From: Escherichia phage UFV-AREG1
Sequence record: KX009778
DNA: 64,000 nucleotides
Reading direction: 5' to 3' (one strand)
A model generated the notes under the pieces. It was given only the letters and a program-made list of their open reading frames with translations, did no database searches and was not told the DNA's origin. Numbering within the stretch: the first letter of the stretch is position 1; each line of letters starts with the position of its first letter. Shown in pieces: positions 15,546-35,430 of the stretch. A program made the position numbers and the translations under genes.

Positions 15546-16063
15546 TAATAACCTCGGTCTTGACGGGCGAAATTTTCGGCATTTTTCAGGTAATAAAGTT
15601 TAAAGATTTCTTCTGCTGACATTCCAAGAGCAATAAATTTATTCATGAAAAAATGAAATTGGTCAATAAGTTCAAATTTAATTTCAAGCTGATCTTCGGG
15701 AGATAAATCTTGAATTTTCTTGGATTGCATTTCAGAGTAACGTTTCTTCCAAGGTTTCCATACAGCAGAAGCTTCTTTTTCGCCATTACTCATACCACCG
15801 AGAGAAGTATATAGCTCGCGAGTTTCGTCTGCGATATAATCGTCTTGGTTTCGCAGCCAAGCAAGAACTTCTCCTGCAGTTTCAAGTGAATCAGGATGAC
15901 GATTTGTTTCTGGTTTATCATTAGCCAAACGAATCTGTAAATGCCGCTGCATATCAAGCATAACCTGCAGTGGGTCAATATTGTGCATAATATTCTCAGC
16001 ATATGCACGATTTGCTTTATCAACACCTTCGATCAAATGAGCACATTCATTAAAGTAAGCCAT
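15545..16063 (-). CDS. 56: dCTPase / dCTP pyrophosphatase gp56 (MazG-like)
   Basis: ORF track gives a 203-aa version; true start taken at MAYFNECAHLIEGVDKA (172 aa), matching T4 gp56 as recalled and preceded by an RBS. Confidence 0.85.
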   Translation of the reverse strand: MAYFNECAHLIEGVDKANRAYAENIMHNIDPLQVMLDMQRHLQIRLANDKPETNRHPDSLETAGEVLAWLRNQDDYIADETRELYTSLGGMSNGEKEASAVWKPWKKRYSEMQSKKIQDLSPEDQLEIKFELIDQFHFFMNKFIALGMSAEEIFKLYYLKNAENFARQDRGY

Positions 16064-16134
16064 TATTTTTCCTTTCAATTCATGGGTTAGTAGATTAATT
16101 ATACAATAAATATATAAAGCAATAAGGAGGACAT

Positions 16135-16335
16135 ATGGTACAAAAATTAATGGCACTTGTTAATGCCATAAAAGGTAATAAAAAACGTATAGCTTTTACT
16201 ATTTCTGCTATGGTAGGAATTTTACTCTGGAACTTTATTTTATCACCAATTGCAATTGCGCATGGTGTTAATATTCCAGTAGTTACTCTTGATACATTTG
16301 TAGATTTAGCATTTGCTTTAGTTGGGTTGATTTAA
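16135..16335 (+). CDS. plus-strand hydrophobic small ORF (possible membrane peptide)
   Basis: 66 aa; AAGGAGG 4 nt upstream of ATG; lies in the 56-61 intergenic interval and overlaps the gene 61 stop by 4 nt. Confidence 0.3.
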   Translation: MVQKLMALVNAIKGNKKRIAFTISAMVGILLWNFILSPIAIAHGVNIPVVTLDTFVDLAFALVGLI

Positions 16336-18752: not shown

Positions 18753-20179
18753 TAAAATTTTAATTCATTTGCCAAAGCATCTAACTGAGCTCGAGTGGAT
18801 TCATTTCTTTGATAACGATTCTGCTCAGCCTGAATCTGTTGTGAACCTGCTACTTCGTTCACTTCAGTTGGAGTAGAATCTTGTTCAATTTCTACCCATT
18901 TCTGATTTCCCTTTTGAACACCCATCAAAAACTTATTCCATTTGTTCTTATCACCATATCGTGATTTGATTTGCTTAATGAGTTGTTGTTCAGCAGCTGC
19001 TAGCTCCTCGGTTTCAATGACCGCAAGCATAAAATCGGCTGTTGCTGGAAGACCAGCAGATTCTGCAATATCGCTCATGTTAACATCAGAAGAATCCCAA
19101 GCTTGTTTACCAACCTGTGCTGCAGTCCAAAGAACAGTTTCGGTTTCAACAGCCAGAGCACGCAATTCCTCTGCAATAGCTTTAACAGTTGTGTAACTAT
19201 TTTCTGAATAAACTCTAATGCGGCAAGATTTACAAATACCTAGATAGTCGACAATAATGATTGTTGGAACAAAATTCTTTTTGAGCTTCAATTCATTCAA
19301 GAGAGACCTGAATGTATTAGCGTCTGCTCCACCAGTAGGATACTGTTTAACGATTAAACGGCCGAGAGTAGATTTCTCACGCCATTTTTCCATTTTTCCT
19401 TTATACTCAGCGTAAGAAATATGTCCATCATCAATGTCATCAAGAGAAACATCAAGCATATTAGCATCAATACGCTTAGCACAGACTTCTTCTGCCATTT
19501 CCATGGAAATATAAAGAACATTATGTCCGAGCTGTAAATAATCTGCCGCTAATGAACACAATCCTAATGATTTACCAACGTTAACGCCAGCCATTAAAAC
19601 GTTCAGTGTTCCAGTTTCAGCTCCGCCTTTCGTAATTTTGTTTAGAATTCTGAGTTTAAATGGAACCTTACGAGCTTTATTCATATAAGATAGCCAACGT
19701 GCTTCGTAGTCATCCATCCAATCATGACCAACGTAACTATCAAATGAAATTGATAATGCTTGGCGCATGATGTCAGGAATAGCACCAACATCCGGCATTT
19801 TCTTATTTCGTTTTTCCGGAGGAAGCTCAGCATTAGTTTGAATTTCGATTATTTTAGACGTAGCATTAAACATCGCCCTTTGCTGAACATATTTTTCTGT
19901 TTCTTTTATTAACCAACTGTGGTCTTCTGGAGAATCAGCTAGTTTTGAAATAAGTGTTTTTACACCAGAATATTCTGTTTCAGTAAATGAACTATTTTCT
20001 AATGCAACATTTAACGCATTAATAGATGGAACGCTATGGTACTCATTAACATGAGATTTAATTAATTTGAATGTATTTTTAGCTGGACCACTTTCAAAAT
20101 ATTCTGAATCCATATATGGCCAAACTTTTGAAAAATAAGCTTGATCAAATATGAGATGAGAAAGAATAATTTCTACCAC
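18752..20179 (-). CDS. 41: replicative DNA helicase gp41 (DnaB-like)
   Basis: 475 aa as T4 gp41; Walker A GVNVGKS; synteny with 61. Confidence 0.9.
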   Translation of the reverse strand: MVEIILSHLIFDQAYFSKVWPYMDSEYFESGPAKNTFKLIKSHVNEYHSVPSINALNVALENSSFTETEYSGVKTLISKLADSPEDHSWLIKETEKYVQQRAMFNATSKIIEIQTNAELPPEKRNKKMPDVGAIPDIMRQALSISFDSYVGHDWMDDYEARWLSYMNKARKVPFKLRILNKITKGGAETGTLNVLMAGVNVGKSLGLCSLAADYLQLGHNVLYISMEMAEEVCAKRIDANMLDVSLDDIDDGHISYAEYKGKMEKWREKSTLGRLIVKQYPTGGADANTFRSLLNELKLKKNFVPTIIIVDYLGICKSCRIRVYSENSYTTVKAIAEELRALAVETETVLWTAAQVGKQAWDSSDVNMSDIAESAGLPATADFMLAVIETEELAAAEQQLIKQIKSRYGDKNKWNKFLMGVQKGNQKWVEIEQDSTPTEVNEVAGSQQIQAEQNRYQRNESTRAQLDALANELKF

Positions 20180-20188
20180 ACTTACTCC

Positions 20189-20545
20189 TTAAAAGAATTT
20201 AAATTTTTTCTTTGACCTTTTATTAAATGCATCTTGTAGTTGCATTGTAATACATTTTTCTACATGAGGAGCTAACTCAGCTTTTCTTTCTTGGTCAAGA
20301 ACAGCAAAGTCCATTACAACCTTTCCATCAACCCAATCCAGTTTAGTTACATACACTATATGTGTAGAACCATCTTCTAGTTTAATGACAATCTCCTGGA
20401 TAACATTTTCCATAGCAGATTTAATTATCTTAAGAGACTCATTAAAAAGACGTTCTTTTCTTTCTTCTTCCCCCTCCGAAGAGGGGGATTCATCGATAAT
20501 TTCTAAATCTAAATCATCTTTATTCATTAAATTCTTCCATATCAC
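20189..20545 (-). CDS. gene 40-position protein
   Basis: 118 aa between 41 and uvsX; synteny only. Confidence 0.5.
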   Translation of the reverse strand: MIWKNLMNKDDLDLEIIDESPSSEGEEERKERLFNESLKIIKSAMENVIQEIVIKLEDGSTHIVYVTKLDWVDGKVVMDFAVLDQERKAELAPHVEKCITMQLQDAFNKRSKKKFKFF

Positions 20546-21701
20546 TTAACTGCTCGAGGTCAGTTTCTAAATCAGCAGCTGATTTACTTTTACTTTCTGG
20601 AGATTTAAATTTTTCAACCTTTGAGTTAATCAATTCATCAACTTCAGCTTCAACAATTTCATTACTATCAATAGCACCTAACTGATAAGCACGTTTAATA
20701 GCATCTCGGAATGGTTGATGCTTAAATAAAGGACCCCAGAATGTAGTGCAGTTGGTATCTTTTGCACGCCAAGATTTTTCTTCGCGAATCATCTCACCGG
20801 TTTCTTCATCAAGAAATTCACGAGCATACCAACCATTCTTAGGTTTTACCACGAATCCTAATTCTAGAGCCATATCTAACAATCCAGAATAAGGATCGAT
20901 ACCACCGTCAAATTTAACATCAATAAAGAATTTACTTTTTTCTTTAACGGTACGAGATTTTTCTACATTTAGAACAAATTGATACCCCTGAAGATCAGAA
21001 CCATCTTTAATCTGACGTTTACCGATAATGAATACAGTATCAGCCGAATACATTACGCCTGTACCACCTGTCATCACGGTTTTACTAAACATTTCAATTG
21101 TTTCAATTGTATGGTTAACCGCAACACATGGAATATTTTTAATGCTAAAGTAAGGAGTAACAATACGGAATAATGACTTCAGTGATTTAGCACGAGTCAT
21201 ATCTGCCACAGATTTTTCATTCAAGGCATCTTCCGTTTCTTTCTTAGAAGCCATATTACCAATTGAGTCGATGAATACAATAACCTTTTCACCACGCTCA
21301 ATAGCTTCAAGCTGGTTCACCATATCAATTTTCAGCTGTTCAACTGACTGAATCGGCGTATGAATTACTCGTTCCGGGTCAACTCCCATGGATCGCAAAT
21401 AAGCTGGAGTAATACCAAATTCACTATCATAGAATAGACAAACCGCGTCAGGATATTTGTTCAAATATGCCGCAACCATAGTCAAAGACATATTTGATTT
21501 AAAGTGTTTAGAAGGCCCTGCGAAAATAGTTAAACCAGACTGCATGCCGCCATCAATCGCACCAGAAATAGCAATATTAAGCATTGGGATTTTTGTACGG
21601 ATTACATCCTTTTCATTAAAGAATTTAGATGTAGTCAGTTCAGCAGTCATTTTAGAAGTGGAAGCTTTAATCAAACGGGATTTTAAATCTGCAATAGACA
21701 T
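20520..21701 (-). CDS. uvsX: UvsX recombinase (RecA/Rad51 family)
   Basis: 393 aa; N-terminus MSIADLKSRLIKASTSKMTAELTTSKFFNEKD and Walker A region match T4 UvsX as recalled. Confidence 0.9.
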   Translation of the reverse strand: MSIADLKSRLIKASTSKMTAELTTSKFFNEKDVIRTKIPMLNIAISGAIDGGMQSGLTIFAGPSKHFKSNMSLTMVAAYLNKYPDAVCLFYDSEFGITPAYLRSMGVDPERVIHTPIQSVEQLKIDMVNQLEAIERGEKVIVFIDSIGNMASKKETEDALNEKSVADMTRAKSLKSLFRIVTPYFSIKNIPCVAVNHTIETIEMFSKTVMTGGTGVMYSADTVFIIGKRQIKDGSDLQGYQFVLNVEKSRTVKEKSKFFIDVKFDGGIDPYSGLLDMALELGFVVKPKNGWYAREFLDEETGEMIREEKSWRAKDTNCTTFWGPLFKHQPFRDAIKRAYQLGAIDSNEIVEAEVDELINSKVEKFKSPESKSKSAADLETDLEQLSDMEEFNE

Positions 21702-21778
21702 TCATTTTTTCCATAGGCATCATTATATTTTCCTCACTGGTTAAAGATAGAGTAATTATAACACAATAAATTTAGGCA

Positions 21779-22627
21779 TTAATCAACTGCTATCGGATGA
21801 ATAGCATTAAACTTATGAAATGCTTCTGATTTTTCTTTACGTGAAACACACATGCGAAGAACCTTTAATGGCTCGTCTTCTTCACCCAACGATTTTCGTT
21901 TTTCAATATTCAACGTTTTCCAACGAGCTTGCTCTGGAAATTCTTTATTGATTTGCTCAAGCGCTCTATTATGTTTAGAATTACTACGAATTGAACTGCA
22001 CCCACCAGGAGCTTGTGCTTTTCCAGATACAACCAGATATTTGAACAAGGCCAAATGCGGATAACCTTGATTAATTAAATTGAGAAATGCATACATATCT
22101 TCACATAAATCAATTTTTCCATACCCAATTTGTTCTGTCGTAAGTTTTCCGAGGTCATACCATGTATTCGTGAATCCATATGAATTTTCACGATAATTAC
22201 CCCAAGATGAAGTAATTTTAAAAATTGGTAGGCGAGCATGACCATGATAATACCCGCAATCCATGGCATCTTCAACGTATTGAATCAATTCATAGAACTG
22301 TTCACGAGTCAATTGATTGACTTTATCCACACAACGACGGTCATCTCTTTTTCGCATTGAACTCATACGAATAGTAGTATCATCGTCAATCATCCAGATT
22401 CGTTGACCTGCATACATATCAGTAATTGCTTTACGAGTACCGGCAATTCCGTTTACATCATCAGGAATAGTTATAATTTTAGCTCTAGACCCATAGGCAT
22501 CATAATAAGCTTTTTCTTCATGTTCACGCACTACAATATGGGGTTCATAATCAGTCGGAAACATATCAAGGGCAGAAACTGCCCCGACACGCTGATAACT
22601 TGGAATTACGAATTGAATCATTTCCAC
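21779..22627 (-). CDS. GT-A-fold glycosyltransferase, candidate hmC-DNA glycosyltransferase
   Basis: 282 aa with DXD motif (WMIDDDTT); occupies the slot between uvsX and gene 42 where T4 has beta-gt, but no similarity to T4 beta-gt as recalled. Confidence 0.6.
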   Translation of the reverse strand: MEMIQFVIPSYQRVGAVSALDMFPTDYEPHIVVREHEEKAYYDAYGSRAKIITIPDDVNGIAGTRKAITDMYAGQRIWMIDDDTTIRMSSMRKRDDRRCVDKVNQLTREQFYELIQYVEDAMDCGYYHGHARLPIFKITSSWGNYRENSYGFTNTWYDLGKLTTEQIGYGKIDLCEDMYAFLNLINQGYPHLALFKYLVVSGKAQAPGGCSSIRSNSKHNRALEQINKEFPEQARWKTLNIEKRKSLGEEDEPLKVLRMCVSRKEKSEAFHKFNAIHPIAVD

Positions 22628-23358
22628 TCACCTTTATAGTCTTTTTTCACAATATGAGTTTCGCCAGTATTCCACCAATGATCAACCAAGTAAAAATGAC
22701 GAGAATATACATGAAGACTTCCGACATTCCATATAATAGAACCTGCTTCATACTGACGAGTTGAATCGCCGGCATTCAAATCAGATACTAATTTATCTAA
22801 TACGTATTTTTGCCATGCATAATCATTACGGAATCCGAAGACCACGTCATTTGAGCGCATGCTTACTACTGCATTGACTTTCTTATCACGAATCAGGTAC
22901 TGTACTGTATTAGTACACATGAAATCTGACATACCATCTTTATTGTAGTCAAATTGCATGGATGGACGAGTATAAATCATGATACCACGTCGAGAATCAG
23001 GATTTTGACCAAGTTCAGCTAAACACATATCATATTGAGCATAGTTATCTTCTGACCAAATAGCCCAACCATAATTCGAGTTAATTTCGCCTTTAGAAGA
23101 TGCTACCTGCTGCCAAATCTTTGGTGTTTCACCTGGAATATCTTTAACAAACAAGCTCTTAGATTTATACCATTCAAGTTCACGCTGAATGTATTCATCA
23201 TTAAGAGCACCAAAAATAAACGGTTCATCTGCTACAAATGATGCGCCAATAATTTCAATAGTTTTAACACCAGTTTTATCAACTACGAAATCTTTTTCTT
23301 TTAATGCAAGCCCCAAATGAAGACGGATTTCTTCAACTGTCATAGAGTCACTAATCAT
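22618..23358 (-). CDS. 42: dCMP hydroxymethylase gp42
   Basis: 246 aa as T4 gp42; thymidylate-synthase-like fold; synteny. Confidence 0.9.
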   Translation of the reverse strand: MISDSMTVEEIRLHLGLALKEKDFVVDKTGVKTIEIIGASFVADEPFIFGALNDEYIQRELEWYKSKSLFVKDIPGETPKIWQQVASSKGEINSNYGWAIWSEDNYAQYDMCLAELGQNPDSRRGIMIYTRPSMQFDYNKDGMSDFMCTNTVQYLIRDKKVNAVVSMRSNDVVFGFRNDYAWQKYVLDKLVSDLNAGDSTRQYEAGSIIWNVGSLHVYSRHFYLVDHWWNTGETHIVKKDYKGEWK

Positions 23359-23511
23359 TTAAACCTCAATTGATACATTCATATTTAACTTGTAACAGTA
23401 ATAAACCCCAACCTAAAATAATAGTTGGAATCATAAGAGGAACCGTTACACTATAGTATATACTTATTATAATCATCAAGATTAAAAGCAACACTGCTAT
23501 AATTTTGCTTT

Positions 23512-23763
23512 TCATTCCTTCTCTCTGATGATAATTACCTGATTTGGTTGTGCAGACTTTTTAGTTTCACCAGCAATTGACCAAATAAATGTAATAAACC
23601 AACCAATAATTGACCAGTTAAACAGTAAAGATGTGAAAAAGATTCCTACTGTCGATTTTGACCCACGCATCAAGGCGATAAACCACGGAAGCATGTATAT
23701 AATAATAGCCAACACGCCTGAAACTAAAACCATAAAAATTGAACCTGCTACTAAAGTTTCCAT
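23512..23763 (-). CDS. imm: Imm superinfection immunity membrane protein
   Basis: 83 aa, two predicted transmembrane helices; size and position as T4 Imm. Confidence 0.75.
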   Translation of the reverse strand: METLVAGSIFMVLVSGVLAIIIYMLPWFIALMRGSKSTVGIFFTSLLFNWSIIGWFITFIWSIAGETKKSAQPNQVIIIREKE

Positions 23764-23770
23764 CTTTTCC

Positions 23771-24151
23771 TCACTTAGTCAAATTTTTTACGCATGAATT
23801 ATAAGAATTCACTACATACTCCATCGGAGCATTTTTACCGGTACGCCATTGGTAATTATTAGCCCAATTTGCCCAAAGCTCGGCGCAGTAGTTTTCAATT
23901 TTTTCTTCGCGTGTAATTACATCCGAATTACGATATGCTTGAGCAGATTCATCTGGACGAATAGCTTCGTCAAAATTTGCCTGCATTTGTTCTACTGTTT
24001 GCTTTGGAGCTTCTTTATAACACTTGACATTAGGATTATAAAATTTGCTTGAACAGTTTACAATTTTTCCTTCATCAGACTGATTTACTACCGGTCCTTG
24101 AGCTACACAACCAGTAAGACATAATGCAATAACCAAAATAGCGATTTTCAT
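23771..24151 (-). CDS. putative lipoprotein
   Basis: 126 aa; signal peptide with lipobox LTGC (MKIAILVIALCLTGCVAQG). Confidence 0.5.
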   Translation of the reverse strand: MKIAILVIALCLTGCVAQGPVVNQSDEGKIVNCSSKFYNPNVKCYKEAPKQTVEQMQANFDEAIRPDESAQAYRNSDVITREEKIENYCAELWANWANNYQWRTGKNAPMEYVVNSYNSCVKNLTK

Positions 24152-24161
24152 AATAATTTCC

Positions 24162-24398
24162 TCAAATGCAAGTAGTAATTACTCCAGTAGTGCTTATGCA
24201 GATATTACCCATTTGCACACCTAAAGACCCATTTGTATTCACATGAAGATTATCATCAATTTTAACTGATATTTTACCATTAGTGTGAATAACGGTGCTA
24301 GATTCAATCACAGGTTGAGTATCATTTTCAACACTAACAAATGGAACTGCTGCTAATGCAACTAAACACACTGCTAAACATCCCATAACAATTTTCAT
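24162..24398 (-). CDS. small secreted protein
   Basis: ORF 24162-24410; start moved to MKIVMGCLAV (signal peptide); first ATG lies in the shared GGAGAATAAAATG leader. Confidence 0.5.
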   Translation of the reverse strand: MKIVMGCLAVCLVALAAVPFVSVENDTQPVIESSTVIHTNGKISVKIDDNLHVNTNGSLGVQMGNICISTTGVITTCI

Positions 24399-24419
24399 TT
24401 TATTCTCCAAATCTGTATC

Positions 24420-24462
24420 AGTTGATAGTTGTATAGTACCACAGAGGAACAGTCTTGTAAAC
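24420..24462. repeat. 43-bp dispersed repeat (promoter cassette), second copy at 50173-50215
   Basis: AGTTGATAGTTGTATAGTACCACAGAGGAACAGTCTTGTAAAC identical at both loci; partial third copy at 51614-51657. Confidence 0.8.
24433..24462 (-). promoter_or_regulatory. early promoter (cassette copy)
   Basis: minus strand GTTTACA-17-TACTAT; 43-bp identical to 50173-50215. Confidence 0.55.
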
Positions 24463-24549
24463 AGTTTTGTGAAAAATTTTTAGGGAATTCTAAAGGTCCA
24501 GAATCATCTGTTTTTCATAAGTATAGATTTATATTACTTGTATGAAAAA

Positions 24550-24565
24550 GGGACCCGGAGGTCCC
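24550..24565 (-). terminator. stem-loop downstream of gene 43
   Basis: GGGACC-CGGA-GGTCCC. Confidence 0.5.
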
Positions 24566-24578
24566 TAGATTTATTCTA

Positions 24579-27275
24579 TCAGCCAAACAGGAAGTCTAAC
24601 GAAGCTTTTTCTTCATAGTCCATACCAGCCGATTCACACATGCCCGCAAGCGGTTTAACAAACGATTTTTGGAACAAAGTTGAGTAGTCAATCCAAGACA
24701 GTACATCAGAACGAATTTCTTTTGGAAGTTCTGTACCCGACGGCCAAGCAATGCACTTGTCACCAAATGGATTTCCCTCACGTAATGGAAGAACCATTAC
24801 CTTATTTCCATCCAAAATTGGAGCTACACCTAAACCGTTAACAGCTCGACGATAAGTTAGCACACCACGAATATGGAACGGACATTTAAATCCTGGCCAA
24901 CCTTTATCATCATATTTCGCTATATCGTTCGCAGTTTTTACTTCAGCAATAACTTTATAATCAAGTTGACGATATTCTTTCTCAAAGTTCTTATAGTATT
25001 CTTGGACAGACTCTTCGCCTTCCTGAAGAATGCGACGAATACTTTCTTCGAGAGCTTCTTGCACTGCTTTTGGTGTTGAACTCTGCTGAGTTTCCATACC
25101 CATGATTTTTAGATGTGGTTCAGCAAATCGCTTATCTTCCATATCATAAACGTTCAGAGCATAACGTTTTTTCGCTTTCCAAAATCCACCGACACCCTTT
25201 GAACCAAGCGGAGGACAAGAAATAGCTTCACGGTCCATATGCATCAGATGCTCGCGGTTATTCATATAATCACATAACTCACGATATGCAACATCAATCA
25301 TAGGTTCCATCTTTTTCTTACCAAACTGATTCATGAATTCAACTAAATCATTTTGTTCTTTAAAGCGGTCAAGACCTACTTTTTCAATTACTTTATCTAC
25401 ACAAACATATACCGAATCAGTATCACCTGCTGCGATGAAATCTTCACCATCAGTTCCACACACTTTATTCAGATATTCATTAATTTTACGAGCAATCCAC
25501 TGAATACCAACTTGACCAAAAATTGTGATAGCAGTAGCATTTCGCAAATCATAGTAACGGAAATGAATATTACCAAGAGCACCATAAAGACTGTTGATAA
25601 GAATTTTACGGTTCAGCTGATTTGTGTTAGCAAGTGTAGCTGCTTTTTCACATTCTTCGATCAGACTATTAAGAACAGATTCAGTGTAATTCGATAATTC
25701 GTTTAAGAAATCATCACTGAACTTAACATATCGTTCAACTTCTGGTTTAGTTGAGCAAGACCCTGCACCTTTCATAATAATCTTTTTAATAGCTTCGGCA
25801 TTCATTTCTTCGGCGAACATTTTCTTTTTCCAATCTTTACGCTGGAAAAATACTTTAGCGATTTCCTTTGGAATGATACCTTCTTGATGCTTATCATACA
25901 TCCATCCATTCGGAGAACAAGAATATTCATCACTCGGTTTAGGAGCTGTTCCTGCGATATATTCATGAATTGGATGAACTTTAAACTGACCACGAATAGT
26001 CTCAGGACTAATGTTAACCTGACGAATAATGCTCGGATACAGAGACGTCAAGTCAAAACTCATAATATATCGACGAGCAATTGGTTTAGGTTCAAATACA
26101 AATGCACCCGGAAAACTTTGTTTAACGTGCGAACCTTGTTGAGGAATAACCTTGTGTTCACTTTTCAGTGAGTTAAAAATAATAGCATCCCAAGTTTTAA
26201 TAGGACTCATTACACCAGAAAAAGGCATTTTAGCGTAATAAGACATACTTAAAACTAGATCAATAAACCCGCGAATTTTATCAATTGCTTGAACTGATTC
26301 TACGTCAATGATGTTATAACTGATGTATCGTTGATGATTAGTCTCACGAAGTTTATTAATAGGACCGTCGTATGGTAATTTGCCCTTTTTGGTTTCATGT
26401 TGAGCAACTGATTCCAAAGAGAATGACGGCAAATTAGTAAATGCGAATTTCTTGTACAAATCTAAATAATCAAGAATAGATACGCCATCAATAGAATAAA
26501 TTTCTTTGCTACCGTACACATTTTGAATTAGTTTAGATTTTACTCGACCGATTGGAGAGAAGCGTTTCATACTACGTTCACCGAGAACCATTTTAACGCG
26601 ATTCATGATATACGGAACGTCAAATCCCTCAATATTCCAACCAGTAAAAATAGCAGGTCGTTTCTGTTCCCAGAGATTGATATATTCCATGAGCATATCA
26701 CGCTCATTATCGAATGGCATATAAATTACTCGGTCAAGAATTTCTTGAGGAACTTCATCACCACCTTCACAGTCAAGCTTAGCAGCTAGCTTTGCATCCC
26801 ATTTTGATACTGAACCATACATTGAATTCAAAAGGTCGAAAACATAAAAACGATCATCAATTGAATCGTAATGAGTGATAGCATCAATTTCATATTCAGC
26901 TTTCATTGGGTCAGGAAATTTATCACCAGTAACCTCAATGTCACAGTTAGCTACACGAACAAATTTTCGGTCATAAACAATTTCTGAACCGTATGTATCA
27001 CTGATATAAGCGAGTTTAAAATCGTTCATACCGAGAGCTTCGAGACCGATGTCTTCCATTCGTTTCATCCAATCTCGAGCATCTTTCATTGATGGAAATT
27101 TTTGAGGAGCGCAGTTTTTACCATAGATGTCTTTGTACTTTGACTCTTCCTTACAATGCCTAAACATAGTTGGAAGATATTCTACTTCACGAGTACGTTC
27201 ATTTCCATTTTCATCAATATAACGCTCAACAATGTTATTTCCGACTGTTTCAATAGAGATATAAAATTCTTTCAT
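24579..27275 (-). CDS. 43: DNA polymerase gp43 (family B)
   Basis: 898 aa as T4 gp43; exonuclease and polymerase motifs (e.g. YGDTDS) present. Confidence 0.95.
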   Translation of the reverse strand: MKEFYISIETVGNNIVERYIDENGNERTREVEYLPTMFRHCKEESKYKDIYGKNCAPQKFPSMKDARDWMKRMEDIGLEALGMNDFKLAYISDTYGSEIVYDRKFVRVANCDIEVTGDKFPDPMKAEYEIDAITHYDSIDDRFYVFDLLNSMYGSVSKWDAKLAAKLDCEGGDEVPQEILDRVIYMPFDNERDMLMEYINLWEQKRPAIFTGWNIEGFDVPYIMNRVKMVLGERSMKRFSPIGRVKSKLIQNVYGSKEIYSIDGVSILDYLDLYKKFAFTNLPSFSLESVAQHETKKGKLPYDGPINKLRETNHQRYISYNIIDVESVQAIDKIRGFIDLVLSMSYYAKMPFSGVMSPIKTWDAIIFNSLKSEHKVIPQQGSHVKQSFPGAFVFEPKPIARRYIMSFDLTSLYPSIIRQVNISPETIRGQFKVHPIHEYIAGTAPKPSDEYSCSPNGWMYDKHQEGIIPKEIAKVFFQRKDWKKKMFAEEMNAEAIKKIIMKGAGSCSTKPEVERYVKFSDDFLNELSNYTESVLNSLIEECEKAATLANTNQLNRKILINSLYGALGNIHFRYYDLRNATAITIFGQVGIQWIARKINEYLNKVCGTDGEDFIAAGDTDSVYVCVDKVIEKVGLDRFKEQNDLVEFMNQFGKKKMEPMIDVAYRELCDYMNNREHLMHMDREAISCPPLGSKGVGGFWKAKKRYALNVYDMEDKRFAEPHLKIMGMETQQSSTPKAVQEALEESIRRILQEGEESVQEYYKNFEKEYRQLDYKVIAEVKTANDIAKYDDKGWPGFKCPFHIRGVLTYRRAVNGLGVAPILDGNKVMVLPLREGNPFGDKCIAWPSGTELPKEIRSDVLSWIDYSTLFQKSFVKPLAGMCESAGMDYEEKASLDFLFG

Positions 27276-34211: not shown

Positions 34212-34229
34212 AAAGGGCCGAAGCCCTTT
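34212..34229 (-). terminator. stem-loop terminator downstream of a-gt
   Basis: AAAGGGC-CGAA-GCCCTTT overlapping the a-gt stop codon. Confidence 0.55.
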
Positions 34230-35430
34230 ATTTTGTAATAATGTCAAACTGTTCTTTAAAGCAGAAGCTTGAATCTTGATGCTGATACAAAAATTCATAT
34301 GCTTTTTCTCGCTCATGATCATAAAGAGCTCGGTCAGATGACAGTTCTTTAATACGTTCAAATGTTGATTCCATATCATTTTCATCAAACCAAATGATAC
34401 CGCTATCATGCGAGGTCAAAGGAGTATTATCAACACGGAATTTTAAATTTTCGCCAGTAGATTTCCAAAATACTGGAATTGTTCCACACGCGCCAAGCTC
34501 GAGATGAGTATATTCTAAAGAACGTTGTAGATATTTTTTGTCCAACTTACTCAGCTGATAACCAAATCCGGATTTACTCATGCGTTCAAGCATTTCGCTA
34601 TTTACATAACGGTCAAGAATTTGCGTTGGCAAATTAGGAGCAATTTTAATTTGGTCTACTTGATGAAGACGATAATACTCGTATGGAATTCCTTTTTCTT
34701 TAATAGGAATGAACGCTGGAGAACGTTCCAGACCTTCCATAATAGTACTTAGTCCTGCAGGTTTAAGATGTTTTTCGTGAAAATCAAACATCTGATAAAA
34801 ACCTTTCCATGTAGTCGTACGACCAATCCAACGGTTGATATTCATGTTAATTTCAGAAACATCTTTCCAGTAGGTTGACCGAACCTTCGCAATATCCATA
34901 GGAGGCTGAAAGTTATATACTGTCGGTGCTTCTTCAATATCATCAAACAGAGAAACAGTTTCTGGATACCACTCTTTCATCAGAACTTTATTAAAATCAC
35001 CATTATCAGAATGGCTAAAAATAACATCAGCTCGACGAACAGTTTCTTCTAATCCCAAATTTCGACGCAAAGAAAGAGAAGAATGGTCATGTTGATAAAC
35101 TACAACACGAACAGAAGGTTTAATGTTATCAATAATTTTTTTATAGTTATTAATAGTGTCTTCTTCAACCGAAGTAGCAGGAACTGAATTGATAATTAGA
35201 ATATCACAATCATTTACCAGCTTAAGTGTTTTATCATATTCTTTTGCCAATAAAACCGGAATTGAAAATGATTTATAATCATGCGCGCAGTTACGAGTAA
35301 ATGATTTATCTTTAGCATAAACCAAAGTTACTTCATGACCATTTTTAATAAACCAATCACGCTGCTCAAGAGAAAATTTAGTTACACCGCAACCTTCAAG
35401 ACCTCGAGCCATAAAAATACATACTTTCAT
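34228..35430 (-). CDS. a-gt: DNA alpha-glucosyltransferase
   Basis: 400 aa; MKVCIFMARGLEGCGVTKFSLEQRDWFIKNGHEVTLVYAKDKSF nearly identical to T4 alpha-gt as recalled. Confidence 0.9.
   Translation of the reverse strand: MKVCIFMARGLEGCGVTKFSLEQRDWFIKNGHEVTLVYAKDKSFTRNCAHDYKSFSIPVLLAKEYDKTLKLVNDCDILIINSVPATSVEEDTINNYKKIIDNIKPSVRVVVYQHDHSSLSLRRNLGLEETVRRADVIFSHSDNGDFNKVLMKEWYPETVSLFDDIEEAPTVYNFQPPMDIAKVRSTYWKDVSEINMNINRWIGRTTTWKGFYQMFDFHEKHLKPAGLSTIMEGLERSPAFIPIKEKGIPYEYYRLHQVDQIKIAPNLPTQILDRYVNSEMLERMSKSGFGYQLSKLDKKYLQRSLEYTHLELGACGTIPVFWKSTGENLKFRVDNTPLTSHDSGIIWFDENDMESTFERIKELSSDRALYDHEREKAYEFLYQHQDSSFCFKEQFDIITK

Follow-up and report, generated by a model that had tools for sequence, protein, structure and literature searches.

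A probable second-glucose transferase gene of the T2/T6 type between uvsX and gene 42 of Escherichia phage UFV-AREG1

Introduction

Which glycosyltransferase does Escherichia phage UFV-AREG1 (KX009778) encode between the recombinase gene uvsX and gene 42, where phage T4 carries its β-glucosyltransferase gene, and which sugars would this enzyme leave on the hydroxymethylcytosine (hmC) of the phage DNA? An initial annotation, made from the DNA sequence, described the product as a GT-A-like enzyme with no resemblance to T4 β-gt. Together with a T4-like α-glucosyltransferase gene found elsewhere in the genome, it was taken to predict a different sugar pattern, such as the gentiobiosyl-type second glucose of T2 and T6; phage arabinosyltransferases were named as an alternative. 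Here, we address this question in a stretch of 64,000 nucleotides of the genome (the window).

An enzyme that adds the second glucose, the βα-glucosyltransferase (βα-GT), has been described together with its product (PMC6024577 and PMC13216743, citing Lehman & Pratt 1960 and Kuno & Lehman 1962). In T2 and T6, the α-glucosyltransferase (α-GT) glucosylates about 75% of hmC, and about 25% remains naked; gentiobiosyl-hmC makes up 72% of hmC in T6 and 5% in T2 (PMC6024577, PMC13216743, bioRxiv 10.64898/2026.02.25.707755). When the gene (ba-gt, also called g-gt or TAGT) is deleted from T6, gentiobiosyl-hmC is lost and only α-glucosyl-hmC is left (PMC11078745; bioRxiv 10.64898/2026.02.25.707755).

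Results

The reading frame in question lies on the minus strand at 21779..22627, encodes 282 amino acids if read from its GTG codon, and includes the motif WMIDDDTT. The frame, its motif, and its place in the uvsX–gene 42 slot are as initially annotated, which the list of open reading frames (ORFs) and the identities of the neighboring genes confirm. The length of 282 residues holds for the ORF read from GTG, yet translation almost certainly starts at the ATG at 22621, giving a protein of 280 residues. We place the start there because, as read directly from the DNA, this ATG and the gene 42 stop overlap in an ATGA, with a Shine-Dalgarno-like GGTGAG 5' of the ATG, and because an 843-nt coding sequence (CDS) is likewise annotated in the T2 and AR1 records. 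The resulting gene (21779..22621, minus strand), which we annotate as ba-gt for beta-glucosyl-HMC-alpha-glucosyltransferase, is intact and encodes an N-terminal IPSYQR motif and three aspartates at residues 79 to 81. Since the ATGA overlap points to probable co-transcription and translational coupling, ba-gt is probably co-expressed with gene 42. Its GC content (0.370) and GC3 (0.242) equal those of the neighboring genes, so that composition gives no sign of a recent foreign origin. A scan of positions 21500-23600 for promoters and terminators returned counts matching the shuffle expectation, and the lone terminator-like hairpin (22585-22569) falls within the ba-gt coding region.

Next to T4, the locus shows a sharp boundary on either side. 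In a blastn comparison of positions 20001-24600, DNA matches to T4 stop at 21689 and restart at 22636, whereas the match to T2 runs unbroken from 20001 to 24163 at 97.5% identity. The intervening segment (21690..22635) is therefore collinear with T2 and without DNA homology to T4; relative to the latter, it is a clean cassette swap, 946 bp with ba-gt for 1941 bp with segA and b-gt. The downstream border of the slot is uvsX (20520..21701, minus strand), whose product matches the Pfam families T4_UVSX_C and RecA and is 90.5% identical to T4 UvsX. A spacer of 77 bp (21702..21778, minus strand) separates it from ba-gt and holds no segA, nor did tblastn with T4 SegA find a match in the window. The gene order 42, ba-gt, uvsX is common to the window, T2, T6, and AR1, and the window as a whole is Tequatrovirus DNA, about 97.5% identical to phages such as NiC89 and AV122.

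The larger interval from gene 43 to uvsX holds only ba-gt, gene 42, a 49-residue ORF, imm, imm.1, and an 82-residue ORF. The first of these small frames (23366-23515, minus strand) lies between gene 42 and imm, encodes a hydrophobic product in PHROG 3610 (unknown function), and is kept in relatives, being annotated in AR1 but unannotated in the T4 RefSeq record. The second (24162-24410, minus strand), between imm.1 and gene 43, has a signal-peptide-like N terminus and belongs to PHROG 4189 (unknown function). There is no gene at this position in T4 and an unrelated 83-residue ORF in T2; the imm.1–gene 43 site looks like a small hypervariable slot.

Homology to T4 β-gt was looked for and not found. 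The best BLASTP comparison of T4 β-gt with the window protein has an E value of 2.2, a Pfam search of the protein gave no match to PF09198, and tblastn with T4 β-gt across the whole window returned nothing better than E 1.5. The initial statement that the protein does not resemble T4 β-gt therefore stands, and we also reject a β-gt located elsewhere in the window.

By contrast, the protein is nearly identical to those encoded in the same slot of T2 (276/280 residues, 99%) and T6 (274/280, 98%), a comparison that supports the expected gentiobiosyl-type second glucose. It matches PHROG 842, "beta-glucosyl-HMC-alpha-glucosyltransferase," with an E value of 3e-89 over profile positions 3-269 of 270. 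It also matches the Pfam family PF20691 (TAGT) with 38.9 bits against a curated gathering cutoff of 27.5 bits, residues 5-209 covering profile positions 2-205 of 205. At the DNA level, ba-gt is shared at ≥90% identity by 473 phage records, many of them annotated with the same enzyme name. Given the identity to T2 and T6, the profile matches, the shared slot, and the partner genes, we are highly confident from these sequence comparisons that the product is a βα-GT orthologous to the T2/T6 enzyme and that the phage is a T2/T6-type Tequatrovirus. No observation speaks against this identity. The initial label of a "different" glycosyltransferase is thus apt with respect to T4, but the gene is a known one that represents the majority state among T4-like coliphages. 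Identifying it as ba-gt is a correct but routine annotation of an already known, ordinary gene.

Structure prediction agrees with this assignment. In a fold search, the AlphaFold2 model of the window protein matched only sugar transferases of GT-A fold, bearing out the initial GT-A-like description; the nearest structural neighbors are of the GT2 type and have polysaccharides, teichoic acids, and lipid-linked glycans as their substrates. The alignment behind the model is shallow (the homolog search gave 11 proteins), the model is uncertain over its C-terminal third, and the loops at 127-138, 192-212, and 242-249 have low confidence. We found no solved structure for any family member, so the catalytic residues are assigned here by inference. 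In an alignment of nine homologs with 32-77% identity, the invariant positions are R11, within the IPSYQR motif; D79-D80-D81; D175, preceded by E174 in 8 of the 9; and G206-G207-x-S209-x-x-R212. The IPSYQR motif resembles the N-terminal signature of GT2, and E174-D175 resembles the GT2 "ED" motif. D79-D80-D81 come directly after the strand 74-77 of the model, as a DXD after the fourth β-strand, and are the predicted metal- and UDP-binding residues, with E174/D175 as the candidate catalytic base. GT2 enzymes are inverting, and an inverting GT2-type enzyme fits a β-linked product made from UDP-α-glucose. These motif and fold results agree with an independent analysis based on an AF3 model, in which the T6 enzyme has a GT-A fold and is sister to GT2 (PMC13216743).

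The whole hmC pathway is present within the window. Gene 42 (22618..23358, minus strand) encodes the dCMP hydroxymethylase that makes hm-dCMP (Pfam Thymidylat_synt, PHROG 160, 97% identical to T4 gp42). The DNA α-glucosyltransferase gene a-gt, whose product makes the α-glucosyl-hmC acceptor of βα-GT, lies at 34228..35430 (minus strand). It was initially called intact and T4-like, and it proves to be so: the product has 400 residues, of which 365 (91%) are identical in T4, and matches the full PF11440 AGT profile with 787.6 bits. Gene 56 (15548..16063, minus strand) encodes the dCTPase/dUTPase and was recovered by tblastn with T4 gp56 at 69% identity over all 171 residues (E 3e-76). With these components, gp56 would remove dCTP, leaving hm-dCTP alone for incorporation, and gp42 would make hm-dCMP, so that DNA would be built with 5-hydroxymethylcytosine. 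α-GT would then attach glucose through an α linkage to roughly three quarters of hmC, and βα-GT, as a metal-dependent, inverting GT-A enzyme of the DXD type, would add a β-1,6 glucose from UDP-α-glucose to give gentiobiosyl-hmC. About a quarter of hmC would be left unglucosylated, as in T2 and T6, an expectation that follows from the lack of β-GT. Orthology, synteny, intactness, fold, motifs, and partner genes were computed here, and donor, acceptor, and linkage come from the T2/T6 literature; that glucose from UDP-glucose is joined β-1,6 to α-glucosyl-hmC would carry over by virtue of the 98-99% identity.

Several features around these genes depart from T4. While neighboring genes encode products 90-98% identical to those of T4, gp56 reaches 69%. 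dam is absent from 16064-16331, its position in T4 between genes 56 and 61, and no Dam-like sequence occurs in the 64-kb window; in its place is a plus-strand ORF encoding 66 hydrophobic residues (16135-16335). The dam-less junction is contiguous in 292 phage records (counted at ≥80% of a 501-bp junction query), and dam is present in 184; the presence or absence of dam is therefore a common polymorphism. Also absent from the window is segF, the homing-endonuclease gene adjacent to gene 56 in T4. For mobB, only ORF lengths were inspected, and there is no ORF of ≥100 residues between a-gt and 35847.

How much gentiobiosyl-hmC should such a phage contain? The window protein could contribute little, leaving DNA that is a few percent gentiobiosylated and in practice α-monoglucosylated, as in T2, which makes only ~5% gentiobiosyl-hmC with an intact ortholog (PMC6024577). 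The window protein is also slightly closer to T2, from which it has 4 differences (R11H, K226R, L237S, and P251S, window residue first), than to T6, from which it has 6 in all, including Y40N, D55G, R106H, K226R, and L237S. K226 and L237 of the window are absent from T2, T6, and AR1. Yet the window gene shows no damage, and it keeps two consensus residues that T2 has lost. Namely, T2 (AP018813, L002:3283-4125) has His in place of R11, which does not vary among nine homologs with identities as low as 32%, and Ser instead of the near-invariant P251, whereas the window, T6, and AR1 retain both. We give the reading of little contribution a substantial chance, somewhat short of even; it differs from the βα-GT explanation in extent and not in function.

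Since the T2 enzyme has His11 instead of a family-invariant Arg kept in the window, T6, and AR1, the comparison suggests that T2 encodes a hypomorph and that the window phage may be T6-like. A bolder version of this proposal is that the R11 and P251 substitutions explain the contrast of 5% and 72% and that the window phage and most of its ~470 relatives are, like T6, heavily diglucosylated. We hold this only tentatively and consider it rather unlikely; if true, the T2 pattern would be hypomorphic and peculiar to a single laboratory strain. The fraction of diglucosylated sites is beyond prediction from sequence.

Both public T6 records carry lesions in ba-gt, unlike the window and T2, where the gene is intact. 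In AP018814/NC_054907 (L003:3135-3974), three nucleotides are deleted in frame, so that the family-invariant DDD motif is short of one Asp; in MH550421 (L006:301-1143), codon 10 is changed from CAG to the stop TAG, and the CDS is annotated from Met20. Such lesions reflect either sequencing errors or mutations in laboratory stocks.

Could the enzyme instead replace T4 β-GT functionally, glucosylating naked hmC directly to give fully monoglucosylated DNA? It shares its slot with T4 b-gt, several public records name ba-gt "b-gt," and some distant TAGT homologs come from phages that encode neither α-GT nor β-GT (PMC13216743), so that primary transferases may exist within the family. However, the protein is 98-99% identical to enzymes of T2 and T6, phages that keep ~25% naked hmC and in which deletion leaves α-glucosyl-hmC only (PMC11078745; bioRxiv 10.64898/2026.02.25.707755), and neither its sequence nor its fold is related to that of β-GT. 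We regard such a replacement as very improbable.

The transfer of another sugar, such as arabinose as in RB69 and Bas46/47-type phages, would create a new hmC decoration. Donor specificity is not certain from sequence, and the sugars on T-even hmC are more diverse than formerly thought (PMC6024577). Against this stand the near-identity to glucose-transferring enzymes, the intact α-glucosyltransferase gene, and the absence from the window of the eight-gene module between 43 and uvsX of RB69-type phages, proposed to make UDP-arabinose (PMC6024577). The arabinosyltransferase alternative raised initially is thus unsupported, and another donor sugar is exceedingly improbable. From the gene content of the 43–uvsX interval and the presence of α-GT, we rejected an RB69-type arabinosyl-hmC system. 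Finally, a non-DNA substrate, for instance a protein or glycans of the host envelope, would suit the polysaccharide-, teichoic acid-, and lipid-linked glycan-modifying structural neighbors but is hardly credible for a protein whose ortholog has been shown in the literature to act on phage DNA, whose gene appears translationally coupled to the hmC-synthesis gene 42, and whose Pfam family comprises glycosyltransferases associated with DNA base modification.

Discussion

The βα-GT reading places UFV-AREG1 among the majority of its relatives. In a tblastn search of the phage collection, 471 records encode the window protein at ≥90% identity, compared with 29 for the T4-type β-gt at the same threshold. 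Published surveys give a similar picture: α-GT and β-GT occur together in 6/753 genomes, the common state being α-GT or β-GT with a TAGT (PMC13216743), and 12/14 sequenced T4-like RB phages have a-gt and ba-gt (PMC6024577). The combination of α-GT and βα-GT is therefore the norm among T4-like coliphages, and the α-GT and β-GT of T4 are the exception. The initial impression of a different enzyme arose because T4 was taken as the yardstick, and the main use of our result is to correct this perspective: T4 is an atypical reference.

Other genera show a further arrangement. In Salmonella phage STP4-a (KJ000058.2, 19286-21192), homologs of β-gt and ba-gt lie side by side beside gene 42, and the same pair occurs in the T4-like phages CC31, S16, and Merlin. 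The paired homologs are about 50% identical to T4 β-gt and about 65% identical to the window ba-gt product. These pairs indicate that the slot can hold both genes, and T4 and the T2/T6-type phages each look to have kept one of them. They also raise the question, discussed in PMC13216743, of whether TAGTs paired with β-gt may extend β-glucosyl-hmC.

Public annotations of this locus are confused. The gene name "b-gt" is attached to ba-gt in several records, for example, AR1 (AP011113.1), PP01 (NC_054930.1), and RB3 (NC_025419.1), and the true β-gt of RB55 (KM607002.1) is labeled "beta-glucosyl-HMC-alpha-glucosyl-transferase." In the AP0188xx records of T2 and T6, ba-gt is a "hypothetical protein." The T2 record also wrongly labels gene 41 "major capsid protein" and a small ORF "tail tape measure."

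The glucosyltransferase pair of a T-even phage predicts its sugar pattern, which in the present case would consist of α-glucosyl-hmC, gentiobiosyl-hmC, and ~25% naked hmC. That this pattern affects restriction and other DNA-targeting defenses, as proposed in the initial annotation, is documented. T6 gains sensitivity to the glycosylase Brig1 when ba-gt is deleted (PMC11078745), and the deglucosylase BapA is resisted by gentiobiosyl-hmC but acts on DNA of the T6 deletion mutant (bioRxiv 10.64898/2026.02.25.707755). Gentiobiosyl DNA is still cut by GmrSD (PMC13216743). A phage of this type would therefore be relatively protected from Brig1 and BapA and still cut by GmrSD-type enzymes, and its naked hmC would confer sensitivity to the hmC glycosylase Brig3 (PMC11078745, PMC13216743, bioRxiv 10.64898/2026.02.25.707755).

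Compared with known systems, the window enzyme is closest to the βα-GT of T2 and T6, with which it shares its length of 280 residues, the order 42, ba-gt, uvsX, and the partners a-gt, 42, and 56, its DDD motif being intact. With T4 β-GT, it has in common the slot beside gene 42, the UDP-glucose donor, the β linkage of the outcome, and the protection of hmC DNA. Yet T4 β-GT (PF09198) has a GT-B fold and the window enzyme a GT-A fold (fold search; PMC13216743), the acceptor is naked hmC for the former and α-glucosyl-hmC for βα-GT of the window type, and the T4 slot also holds segA. The system of RB69 and Bas46-47 is likewise an alternative hmC-sugar system of T4-like phages, with genes that also lie in the plastic interval from 43 to uvsX (PMC6024577), but the window lacks its module and has an α-glucosyltransferase. 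More broadly, the enzyme shares with the Pfam TAGT family (TET-associated glycosyltransferase; PF20691), sister to CAZy GT2, the GT-A fold, the DXD after β4, and the GT2-like N-terminal IPSYQR. Most TAGT members are uncharacterized and are associated with base oxygenases of the TET/JBP type, whereas the subgroup to which the window enzyme belongs follows a thymidylate-synthase-type hydroxymethylase in the pathway and acts on a base that is already glucosylated.
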